A stretch of 64,000 nucleotides of DNA, taken from contig NZBM01000015.1 of the NCBI GenBank assembly GCA_002687905.1, forward strand, positions 2,811-66,810, written 5' to 3'. This stretch comes from a bacterium (GTDB taxonomy: Bacteria > Patescibacteriota > Minisyncoccia > Phycocordibacterales > JABMNX01). Shown in pieces: positions 7,908 to 9,607 of this stretch. The notes under the pieces were generated by a model. The model had not been told where the DNA came from. It worked only from the letters and a program-made list of their open reading frames with translations, and made no database searches. The number at the start of each line of letters is the position of its first letter. Within the stretch, counting starts at the first letter, position 1. The translations under genes and the position numbers were made by a program.

Positions 7908-9607
7908 TTAGCTTAGAGTTTGATCCTAGCTCAGGGTGAACGCTGGCGGCGTGGATAAGGCATGCAAGTCGAGGGACCCCTCACCCAGTCTCGTAAATAT
8001 TACAACTGGTGAGAACAACCATGACCAAGTATTTGTTGGTCTGGGTGAGGGGGACCGGCAGACGAGGTAGTAACACGTAGGAATGCACCTCATAGTCAGG
8101 AATAACTACGGGAAACCGTAGCTAATACTTGATAGTCCCTCCCACCAACTTTGTTATTGTCTTTTTAAGTAAGGGGTAAACCCCCACACCAACTTTGGCA
8201 TTAAGCCGGAGGCGGGTCGTGGTCGGGTTTGTCATCTTAACTCGGGTAATGTTATTAGCTTCAATAGCTTAAATTACACGGCTTAAAAACTAGACGATGC
8301 CAAAGTTGGTGTGGGGGTAAAGATTTATCGCTATGAGAGCAGCCTGCGGAGTATCAGCTTGTTGGTAGTGTAAAGGACTACCAAGGCTATGACGCTTAGG
8401 GGAGGTGAGAGCCTGACCCCCACCGATGGGACTGAGACACGGCCCATACTCCTACGGGAGGCCGCAGTCGAGAATCTTCCGCAATGGGCGAAAGCCTGAC
8501 GGAGCGACGCCGCGTGATGGATGAAGTTCTGCGGAACGTAAACATCTTTTATAGGGGAGGAAGTTTATTGACGTTACCCTATGAATAAGAGGCACCTAAT
8601 CACGTGCCAGCAGGTGCGGTAATACGTGAGCCTCAAGCGTTACCCGGATTTATTGGGCGTAAAGGGTGTGTAGGCGGTTTTGTTAGTCTCCTGTTAAAGC
8701 CTCTGGCTTAACCAGAGAAGTGCAGGGGAAACGGCAAAACTAGAGGATGCGAGGGGTTTGTGGAACTCATGGTGTAGGGGTGGTATCCGTTGATATCATG
8801 GGGAACACCGAAAGCGAAGGCAACAAACTGGCGCACTCCTGACGCTGAGACACGAAAGCGTGGGTAGCGAATGGGATTAGATACCCCAGTAGTCCACGCC
8901 CTAAACGATGTCCGCTGGCTTTTCGGAGTATCGACCCTCTGAGAGGCGAAGCTAACGCGTTAAGCGGACCGCCTGGGTAGTACGGCCGCAAGGCTAAAAC
9001 TCAAAGGAATAGACGGGGGCTCGCACAAGCGGTGGAGCGTGTGGCTTAATTCGACACTAAGCGAAGAACCTTACCAGGGCTTGAAACCGAGACGACAATT
9101 CTGTGAAAGTAGAATTTTCTTCGGACGGCTCGGCAGGTGACGCGTGGCTGTCGTCAGTTCGTGATTTGAATTGTTCCCTTAAGTGGGGTAACGAACGCAA
9201 CCCTCATTGCCTGTTACAAGTGTCAGGCGAGACTGCTCCCTCACGGGAGAGGAAGGCGAGGATGACGCCAAGTCAGCACGTCCCTTTGATGTCCTGGGCT
9301 GCACACGCGCTACAATGGGTGATACAACGGGGCGCGACGCCGAGAGGCTGAGCAAATCCTTATAAAGTCATCCCCAGTTCGGATTGAGGTCTGCAACTCG
9401 ACCTCATGAAGTTGGAATCGCTAGTAATCGCAGGTCAGCAACACTGCGGTGAATACGTTCTCGAGCCTTGTACTCACCGCCCGTCAAGTCAAGGGAGCCG
9501 GGAGTACCCGAAGTCTCACTTTATGTGGGCCGAAGGTAAGTTCGGTAACAGGGACTAAGTCGTAACAAGGCACGGGTAGCGGAAGCTGTTCGTGGATCAA
9601 TTCCAAT
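7908..9607 (+). rRNA. rrs: 16S ribosomal RNA, about 1.7 kb, with a roughly 150-190-nt insertion in V2
   Basis: 5' AGAGTTTGATCCTAGCTCAG at 7915. Internal landmarks CCTACGGGAGGCCGCAG, GTGCCAGCAGGTGCGGTAATAC, ATTAGATACCCCAGTAGTCC, GTCGTAACAAGG. The 3' end reads GGATCAATTCC near 9594-9604. The ends are approximate. Confidence 0.9.
8130..8320 (+). other. insertion / expansion segment inside the 16S V2 region
   Basis: About 210 nt lie between GCTAATAC and the ATGAGAGCAGCCTGCG landmark, against about 60 nt in typical 16S. The segment is bracketed by a perfect 20-bp inverted repeat, CCCCCACACCAACTTTGGCA...TGCCAAAGTTGGTGTGGGGG. Confidence 0.7.

Follow-up and report, generated by a model that had tools for sequence, protein, structure and literature searches.

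The 64,000-nt stretch analysed here (the window; positions 2,811 to 66,810 of contig NZBM01000015.1) carries a bacterial 16S rRNA gene whose variable region V2 is enlarged by extra DNA. This DNA is probably one copy of a palindromic mobile element that is small and non-coding and resembles transposable elements of the miniature inverted-repeat type (MITEs), with terminal inverted repeats (TIRs) of ~21 bp and a 4-bp target-site duplication. It is a member of a family of dispersed copies, its insertion site and the accompanying duplication can be delimited, the family has evolved in a way that preserves the hairpin, and its distribution among relatives is patchy.

Extra sequence in the 16S rRNA gene

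The 16S rRNA gene that carries the insertion is complete and occupies positions 7908-9607 of the forward strand (Rfam RF00177, 1371 bits, full length). Its host is a Parcubacteria/Paceibacteria organism of the candidate phyla radiation (CPR), and the nearest loci all come from Parcubacteria metagenome-assembled genomes (MAGs). As relatives we used the 119 loci of a species-representative genome collection (GTDB) that contain a signature 20-mer of this 16S gene, essentially all of them from Parcubacteria/Paceibacteria MAGs. The interval between the end of TAATAC (8128) and TCAGCT (8354), which reaches from helix 8 to helix 11, measures 225 nt in the window, versus 54 nt in 61 of the 119 loci and 53-56 nt in 17 more, which gives an excess of ~171 nt over the usual length. 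The preliminary description of this DNA, made from the sequence and its open reading frames (ORFs), had reported extra V2 sequence with a perfect stem, free of ORFs and unlike an intron, on the basis of a landmark spacing of ~210 nt; its landmarks measure 205 nt apart, and the Rfam, repeat and ORF checks agree with what it reported. Among the checks that it proposed were an alignment to a 16S model and a search of relatives for an insertion at the homologous site. The former left 160 nt (8148-8307) unaligned where the hairpin that follows helix 8 has its tip, and the latter recovered the same insert in the closest relative.

This relative, L082 (JADHUY010000012, a Black Sea MAG), is 97.9 % identical to the window over the rest of the 16S gene. 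Its insert is 97 % identical over the first 114 nt, has substitutions of its own, and its distal hairpin has diverged. The preliminary description had itself named an assembly chimera, or an ordinary long V2 with wrongly drawn limits, as what could refute it. The origin of the window from an uncultured organism is a prior ground for such caution and the only one. The independent MAG L082 and other relatives share the insert, which rules out an assembly artefact, five further contigs from other samples show the same architecture, and the 16S sequences on both sides of the insert are colinear with the Rfam model. We give this explanation practically no weight.

Structure of the insert

The repeat search placed CCCCCACACCAACTTTGGCA at 8181-8200 on the forward strand and its exact reverse complement at 8298-8317, with 0 mismatches and a shuffle expectation of 0.00 (100 shuffles). 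The inverted repeat extends to 22 nt (8180-8201 and 8297-8318, 100 % complementary). There is also a 22-nt direct repeat of the 5′ arm, at 8137-8158 compared with 8181-8202 (82 % identical), and it contains the second occurrence of CACCAACTTTG (8143-8153). The preliminary description had noted that a motif recurs inside the stem; the second copy does lie within the inserted DNA, but upstream of the perfect stem.

All parts of the insert are described here on the forward strand. First comes a solo ('outer') 5′ arm, CCCTCCCACCAACTTTGTTATTGT, at 8137-8158, where the loop of helix 9 is expected; in the predicted folds it pairs with 8301-8317. The spacer that follows (8159-8176) ends in GGGG, and from its resemblance to the CCC-GAAA-GGG of insert-free relatives we infer that it is the native 3′ strand of helix 9. 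The insert-free sites used for this comparison were GGTCCCGAAAGGGTAAAG and GGTCCCTTCGGGGTAAAG (L040, L075). Next are the left target-site duplication TAAA (8177-8180), recognised from the sequence, the duplication statistics given below and the uninterrupted site GTAAAGATTTATCGC present in 61 of the 119 related loci, and then the complete element copy (8181-8317), a MITE-like palindrome of ~135 nt in the sense direction of the rRNA (76.3 bits, E = 3e-14 with the family model R1 described below). The right duplication TAAA (8318-8321), supported by the sequence and the same statistics, coincides with the native linker between helices 9 and 10. It is followed by the native reduced helix 10, GATTTATC (8322-8329), which according to the Rfam alignment is intact 3′ of the insertion and is the same in most relatives.

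Within the element copy, the 5′ TIR, or 'inner' arm of the perfect stem, occupies 8181-8201 and is defined by the repeat search and by covariation of the stem across the family. The interior (8202-8296) is identical to that of L082 in its proximal part and diverged in the distal hairpin (~8250-8292), where a small hairpin is still predicted. The 3′ TIR (8297-8317), found by the repeat search and in the family alignment, is preceded by a conserved ACG (8294-8296). A local hairpin, CUUUGGC-AUUAA-GCCGGAG (8193-8211), would compete with the perfect stem; it appears in the minimum free energy folds of seven loci and covaries in the subfamily found in helix 9.

The full element (~137 nt) is inserted at TAAA in the single-stranded linker between helices 9 and 10 (E. 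coli ~194-197) and not in the helix 9 loop, and the filled site reads GGGG-TAAA-[8181-8317]-TAAA-GATTTATCGC. The stretch 8137-8176 corresponds to helix 9 (CCC…GGGG), whose loop holds ~32 nt matching a canonical element's 5′ end; the ATTGTCTTTTT found after the inverted repeat is among them (compare L047). Judged by its sequence, the insert is composite, with a helix 9 that bears a solo 5′ arm (8137-8176) followed by a complete element (8181-8317). Its history could have involved two separate insertions, one of which then decayed, or a nested insertion and a deletion between direct 3′ arms; both fit.

A family of dispersed copies

We scanned a metagenome collection for the shared 3′ core ACGATGCYAAAGTTRGTGT and obtained 55 loci. 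Thirteen of these are without a 5′ arm and seem to be fortuitous matches within coding sequence; the remaining ones have a matching 5′ arm ~105 nt upstream of the 3′ core. A search for arm pairs was followed by a covariance model, R1, built from 46 aligned copies (alignment A1, the window copy and 45 others). The searches gave ~45 further copies in 40 loci. Their length is uniform, mostly 118-128 nt between the core ends, with the exception of L128 and L157 (helix 9; 68-69 nt), and single contigs may carry 2-4 copies (L142, L167, L161, L162, L169, L148).

The consensus of the element is (C/T)CCGCACACYAACTTTGGCAT, a variable interior of ~90 nt and ACGATGCYAAAGTTRGTGTGCGG(G/A), so that its ends read (C/T)CCG…CGG(G/A). 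The TIR of 21 nt is conserved across the 46 copies. In the terminal stem, 95.8 % of 966 cells are paired and 8 of the 21 pairs have changed on both sides (71 cells). None of 500 shuffles reached these values, and slid controls were 30-42 % paired. At column 10, for example, C-G has become U-A in 21 sequences, and at columns 17-19 such double changes have replaced G-C by A-U, C-G or U-A. Both arms were required to be consensus-like, which biases the percentage of paired cells and not the number of double changes.

Exact 4-nt repeats flank 17 of 48 copies (5.7 expected), at one boundary offset and for k = 4 only. After collapsing the copies by site, exact 4-nt duplications are present at 10 of 38 sites against 3.1 expected (p = 0.0002), and at least 3 of the 4 positions match at 20 of the 38. 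The duplicated sequences are TAAA/TTTA, TATG and CAAG. The insertion in the helix 10 loop of L166, for example, reads AAAGA-TTTA-[element]-TTTA-TCGC, and the 16S genes provide filled and empty pairs for both a TAAA site and a TTTA site. The family is thus accompanied by a target-site duplication of fixed length, 4 nt. The element is small (~135 nt) and non-coding, and together with the terminal inverted repeats, the fixed duplication and the dispersal these are the defining marks of MITEs, for which reason we call it MITE-like.

Copies occur in several structural RNAs. In 16S rRNA genes, those in helix 9 of L128, L136, L157, L166 and L168 have the double 5′ arm architecture of the window, and others lie in helix 10 (L120, L045 and a second copy in L166); Rfam places the copies of L136 and L166 within the small subunit rRNA. 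Copies confirmed by Rfam to lie in 23S rRNA occupy at least five sites, with three copies in L167, two in L150 and one each in L138, L147 and L152. One of them replaces the hairpin following …ACAAGGAGUGGGAGC, a site that we take, reading it against the E. coli sequence, to be the classical helix 25 position of intervening sequences (IVSs); the copy of L138, read in the same way, presumably replaces the helix 63 region. The 23S gene of L167 (3679-8282) has its element copies at 6672-6804, 7442-7575 and 7885-8018, one of them at the presumed helix 25 IVS site, and contains a group I intron as well. With CCAGGTAGTCGC and GAGGAAAGTCCG as its immediate neighbours, a copy of L171 (4320-4456) occupies the P3 position of RNase P RNA; the RNaseP_bact_a match there is below threshold (24 bits) and is truncated at the contig end.

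Many other copies are intergenic, and many of them end 5-16 nt before a start codon. Two abutting copies in L142 share one TAAA. In L148 the element (855-992 and 186-323) interrupts a type IV pilin-like gene at a TTTA within its Gly-Phe-Thr codons. Upstream of the TTTA-flanked copy, the former leader MNIFRKSKG can still be read, and the 3′ arm provides an in-frame replacement for start and leader, ATG CCA AAG TTG GTG TGT GGG, giving MPKLVCG|FTLIE. Insertions of the pilin type are also present in L174 (549-684) and L155 (1-59), the leader taking the form MPKLV(C/S)G|FTLIE, and Pfam recognised the N_methyl motif in these two pilin-like ORFs.

This dispersal also bears on whether the insert could be a spliced intron, a degenerate group I or II or a protein-dependent one, whose removal would ligate the 16S exons. 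Introns abound in CPR rRNA genes, whose insertions are for the most part reported to be absent from transcripts (PMC11270868 and PMC9297842, both citing Brown et al. 2015); group I introns also exist elsewhere in related loci. However, no Rfam intron model matches the insert (8120-8330) at E <= 10, although the same library detects group I and group II introns elsewhere in related loci. No Rfam family was above its gathering threshold in the window copy or in canonical copies, where only sub-threshold matches to miRNA precursors, that is generic hairpins, were seen. The insert is a simple long hairpin of only ~137-181 nt, no ORF longer than 37 amino acids overlaps it, and the family is extragenic as well and has target duplications. 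We regard a spliced intron as very improbable; the preliminary description had judged the insert too short and too poor in ORFs for a typical group I intron with a homing endonuclease.

One subfamily (L122, L124, L126, L127, L159, L164, L169) has TCCG…CGGA ends and an interior motif, TGnTATAAT, resembling an extended -10 element. From their sequence and their position 5-16 nt before start codons, its copies may be portable promoters or 5′ leaders. A sigma-54 promoter reading of TGGCA…TTGC was rejected by inspection, the spacing being 5 nt too long.

Two pairs of interior blocks (A1 columns 22-39 and 114-131) covary between subfamilies (e.g. L138:2900-3037 and L127:919-1054). One pair is GTGTTTT/AAAACAC or TGTGCAT/ATGCACA, and the other is GTTGC/GCAAC, GTTAC/GTAAC or GTTGT/ACAAC. 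The blocks stand in the crossing order A B … A′ B′ and cannot both form in a nested fold. An H-type pseudoknot of A/A′ and B/B′ is unlikely, as a 3-nt loop would have to cross a stem of 7-8 bp. A conserved U.G extension of the stem (columns 22-24/129-131) was not supported either, since column 23 often has an A facing an invariant C.

Distribution among relatives

The R1 search found the element in only three of the 119 GTDB loci (L045, L047 and L082). L047, whose 16S is 89 % identical to that of the window, has a simpler single hairpin with the same arms, and L045 has the homologous hairpin in helix 10, not helix 9. L075, L040 and L116 (87-90 % identical) lack the insert and have an ordinary helix 9 of the form CCC-tetraloop-GGG. 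This pattern was the first indication of mobility. The 16S genes closest to those of carriers are empty too, for instance the neighbours of L157 (96-97 % identity over a 460-nt segment). The distribution of the element in 16S genes is patchy.

Other inserts were seen at the same helix 9 position. L033 (Campbellbacteria CG10) has a different one of at least 350 nt that encodes an 86-aa GIY-YIG nuclease (Pfam E = 6.5e-16), and L063, L096, L118 and L019 have long, near-perfect hairpins of unrelated sequence, with ~40-100 extra nt. In view of these unrelated hairpins, the helix 9 corner of 16S appears to be a general hotspot of hairpin insertion in Parcubacteria.

RNA folding and orientation

The predicted fold of 8136-8317 has a free energy of -76.5 kcal/mol, and in it the outer solo arm pairs with the 3′ arm. 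Forcing the perfect inner stem gives -65.3 kcal/mol, i.e. ~11 kcal/mol less stable. The preliminary description was right about the perfection of the 20-bp stem; that this stem closes the insertion is not what the folds predict, as the closing partner of the 3′ arm is the solo arm. The fold of the slightly longer segment 8130-8325 has a z of -6.3 relative to shuffles. Pairing of the outer arm with the 3′ arm was predicted independently in all seven loci with the double-arm architecture. Their consensus fold consists of a 17-bp outer stem and a 7-bp extension, AUUGUCx/xGACGAU, with compensatory changes. The local hairpin CUUUGGC-loop-GCCRAAG, which uses the inner arm, covaries as well (GCCGAAG, GCCAAAG, GCUAAAG; columns 61-67/73-79). 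The differences between the outer arm and the 3′ arm are mostly G.U-compatible, and such changes are relevant only in RNA and only on the sense strand.

These folds are among the arguments for a different origin, namely a lineage-specific expansion segment, vertically inherited, retained in the mature 30S subunit and serving a structural or regulatory purpose, for which the similarity to extragenic hairpins would be secondary. On that account the 17-nt motif, present three times, would be able to pair in two alternative ways and act as a switch in folding or assembly. An expansion segment would be consistent with the helix 9 architecture of solo arm, spacer and full hairpin recurring in seven loci whose 16S is 82-85 % identical to the window, with the consensus fold and its compensatory changes, with the covarying local hairpin and the G.U-compatible mismatches, and with the greater stability of the outer-arm conformer. 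The copy that forms P3 of RNase P RNA points the same way, since cleavage there would fragment the ribozyme. However, copies with the same ends and length occur between genes, within a pilin gene and, with 4-nt duplications, at many unrelated rRNA sites, the carriers are scattered among empty 16S genes, and the close relatives L075, L040 and L116 function without the insert. We therefore consider an expansion segment possible and still rather unlikely, and keep the mobile element as the preferred origin.

Several results nevertheless weigh against a mobile element. The 30 window ORFs searched with Pfam gave cell-envelope, Sec and sugar-nucleotide genes, but neither a transposase nor an RNase III gene. 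As for an autonomous element, arm pairs at kb spacing in the loci gave only noise at 3 mismatches, and no systematic genome search for one was made. Neither blastn-short nor an unfiltered R1 search found another copy within the 64 kb of the window, where the only significant R1 match is the 16S copy itself, so that mobility in this genome is putative; a collection of viral contigs had no match to the 3′ core. A perfect duplication is missing at 28 of the 38 sites. The metagenome copies were retrieved through a pattern in the 3′ arm, and the conservation of this arm is therefore partly by construction. Finally, the copies in structural RNAs are all in sense orientation, at 8-9 independent sites, and this orientation together with the covarying helix 9 fold points to selection at the RNA level, beyond what a purely selfish element would need. 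The covariance model separates the two orientations by 25-30 bits. Intergenic copies, in contrast, are found in both orientations relative to their neighbours (~11 to 7), so RNA-level selection has seemingly filtered which insertions in structural RNAs survived.

The strict orientation might also mean that the hairpins are modules of the host, such as RNase III processing or stability signals, promoter leaders or protein-binding sites, which were repeatedly recruited and of which the 16S copy is one. The many intergenic copies that end shortly before a start codon, the subfamily with the TGnTATAAT-like motif and the covarying interior blocks would all suit such modules. Recruitment without transposition, however, leaves the exact 4-nt duplications and the filled and empty pairs unexplained, and likewise the tandem and nested copies that share a TAAA in L142 and the insertion that splits the pilin leader; the mixed orientation of the intergenic copies does not favour it either. 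We consider this explanation improbable, less so than a spliced intron.

Possible mechanism and fate of the RNA

If the insert is a mobile element, it would have spread with the help of a transposase acting in trans and cutting with a 4-bp stagger at sites resembling TTTA/TAAA. The composite 16S allele could then have become patchily distributed among lineages because it was lost repeatedly, or because its conserved 16S flanks allowed it to recombine. After co-transcription with the pre-16S rRNA, the element would fold into a long helix projecting from the corner of helices 9 and 10, a surface region that CPR ribosomes have truncated; the surface helices shortened in CPR include 16S helices 6 and 10 as well as H9 and H63 of 23S (PMC9297842). 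The element would survive only in the orientation and at the sites in which a long helix is harmless.

The closing helix (~17-24 bp) might be cut by RNase III, as in a classical IVS, or remain in place as an expansion helix, the two fates that the preliminary description had proposed. IVSs with terminal stems of 28 bp are removed by RNase III from helices 9, 25 and 45 of 23S rRNA (PMC4990558), and the enzyme also cuts the hairpins of Correia MITEs at the inverted repeats (PMC10969869). The long perfect stems and the use of classical IVS sites incline us to excision, while the copy in P3 of RNase P RNA and the conserved internal fold in helix 9 incline us to retention. We rate the two outcomes, a 16S rRNA fragmented by RNase III and a retained expansion helix, as about equally likely.

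Comparison with known elements

The insert has the hallmarks of both an IVS and a MITE, and we place the element in both classes, outside the intron families and outside REP/REPIN. As in IVSs, there is extra sequence at a surface helix that is missing in relatives, and the stem reaches at least 20 bp; the alternative outer stem has 17 bp and the 7-bp extension. Bacterial 16S IVSs are known from Campylobacter/Helicobacter and from Caedibacter. Like the IVSs of 23S helices 9, 25 and 45 in Salmonella, Leptospira, Coxiella, Campylobacter and other bacteria, the element is a short addition to the tip or the edge of a helix on the surface, has complementary termini with a stem of at least 20 bp, is sporadic in its phylogenetic distribution and is tolerated in a single-copy rRNA gene. 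In related loci it even occupies what is presumably the classical helix 25 site of 23S (PMC4990558). Classical IVS families, however, have been described only inside rRNA genes, whereas the element is also found extragenically, in RNase P RNA and in a pilin gene, with 4-nt duplications. A classical IVS replaces a loop, whereas the window copy lies in the linker between helices 9 and 10. IVSs are also known for excision by RNase III and fragmentation of the rRNA, which for the element are possible outcomes.

Among MITEs, the closest parallel is the Correia/NEMIS family of Neisseria, which shares with the element a length of ~100-200 bp, the lack of coding capacity, TIRs, a target duplication, dispersal often just upstream of genes and, in some subtypes, promoter-like motifs. 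Correia transcripts fold into hairpins that RNase III cleaves in Neisseria (PMC10969869); for the element the hairpin is predicted. Correia duplicates TA whereas the element duplicates 4 nt, mostly TTTA/TAAA. No sequence similarity between the two is expected, and the element has no known parent insertion sequence. Insertion into rRNA or RNase P genes has not been described for bacterial MITEs, and a 2024 review of prokaryotic MITEs never mentions rRNA.

Rickettsia palindromic elements (RPEs) are similar in being palindromes of ~100-150 bp in reduced genomes that are tolerated in functional genes, and the insertion in the pilin leader parallels their in-frame insertions. RPEs are also known to have inserted into RNA genes. 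They belong to a different phylum, are unrelated in sequence and lie mostly within protein-coding genes, whereas the element favours the helix tips of structural RNAs and intergenic DNA. REP/REPIN sequences, mobilised by RAYT transposases, likewise form hairpins as doublets whose arms are conserved and whose middle varies, and they too are scattered through intergenic DNA. They are not known to make target duplications. They carry a GTAG or CGTC tag (PMC3733652), whereas the element starts with (C/T)CCG, has no tag and makes a 4-nt duplication.

Palindromic repeats also invade rRNA genes of organelles, as in Volvox and, as GC clusters, in yeast. Selfish palindromes colonise repeat-rich organelle genomes (PMC2670323). 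These cases, and the eukaryotic expansion segment considered next, concern a different domain of life and show no homology to the element, for which retention in mature rRNA is one of two possible outcomes. The small subunit of eukaryotes tolerates additional helices at the corner in question, where the expansion segment ES3S lies near helices 9 and 10.

Inserts of at least 100 nt are found in 48 % of CPR 16S genes (Tsurumaki et al. 2024, PMC11270868). The short ones (mostly <200 bp) that have no ORF and are neither group I nor group II introns were left uncharacterised there, with RNase III-type IVSs as a suggestion (PMC11270868). The window insert is the same phenomenon in the same clade as the short inserts of Brown et al. 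2015 and Tsurumaki et al. 2024, and since it belongs to this class the bare observation of it is not new. These surveys sorted inserts by position, length, intron model and ORF, whereas here the element is defined as a dispersed repeat family. In the full-text literature we found no account of CPR rRNA inserts as a dispersed palindromic family with target duplications and with copies in 16S, 23S, RNase P RNA, intergenic DNA and a pilin gene, although such a search cannot prove absence.

Implications

The origin of rRNA IVSs and their recurrence at few helices have been attributed to the horizontal transfer of unknown mobile DNA. The element is at once an rRNA insert, also at the presumed helix 25 site, and a dispersed repeat with duplications, which makes the link between IVSs and mobile elements directly testable, and it suggests that this family is one source of rRNA intervening sequences. 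A broader proposal, which we put forward tentatively and at somewhat less than even chances, is that one palindromic transposable family has been the common source of IVS-like inserts in 16S, 23S and RNase P RNA across a branch of the CPR and has been partly domesticated by its hosts at the RNA level. The domestication is suggested by the sense-only orientation in structural RNAs and by the conserved version in helix 9, in which one motif is present three times, so that two mutually exclusive pairings can form, and which could serve as a processing or assembly switch. If this proposal is true, it would be direct evidence that rRNA IVSs and expansion helices can arise from MITEs. Some of the short, so far uncharacterised insertions that are common in CPR rRNA genes would also receive an identity, and rRNA annotation could mask or flag such inserts with the help of the family consensus.

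The insert adds ~170 nt to V2 and so changes the length of V1-V3 amplicons. The 16S gene of the window has unusual bases at two primer sites, GGCCGCAG instead of the usual GGCAGCAG at 8457-8466 and CAGCAGGTGCGGTAA instead of CAGCAGCCGCGGTAA at 8607-8619, which the standard primers 341F and 515F would mismatch. Together with the insert, these variants (GGCCGCAG, CAGCAGGTGCGG) make it likely that the lineage is missed or mis-binned in 16S surveys.

Other features of the 16S gene and of the window

The Rfam alignment left another 56 nt unaligned in V1. A second hairpin insertion is located there, in V1/helix 6 (7977-8052), with ~56-76 nt and 23-nt arms that are 78 % complementary. It is unrelated in sequence to the element and is not present in L082, the 98 % identical relative; L040 and L116 have other V1 extensions.

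Downstream of the 16S gene (window 9608-11235), a tRNA-Ile(GAU) stands alone at 10321-10395 and is directly followed by a UDP-glucose dehydrogenase-like gene. No tRNA-Ala, 23S or 5S gene was found within the 64-kb window, so the rRNA genes are unlinked. Between 445 and 34063, the genes are nearly all on the forward strand and form a large cell-envelope/polysaccharide cluster that includes FtsW, many GT4 glycosyltransferases, sugar epimerases, a DegT aminotransferase, an asparagine synthase and SecDF. An ORF with a TrwB-like coupling-protein domain (15942-17654) lies within the same cluster.

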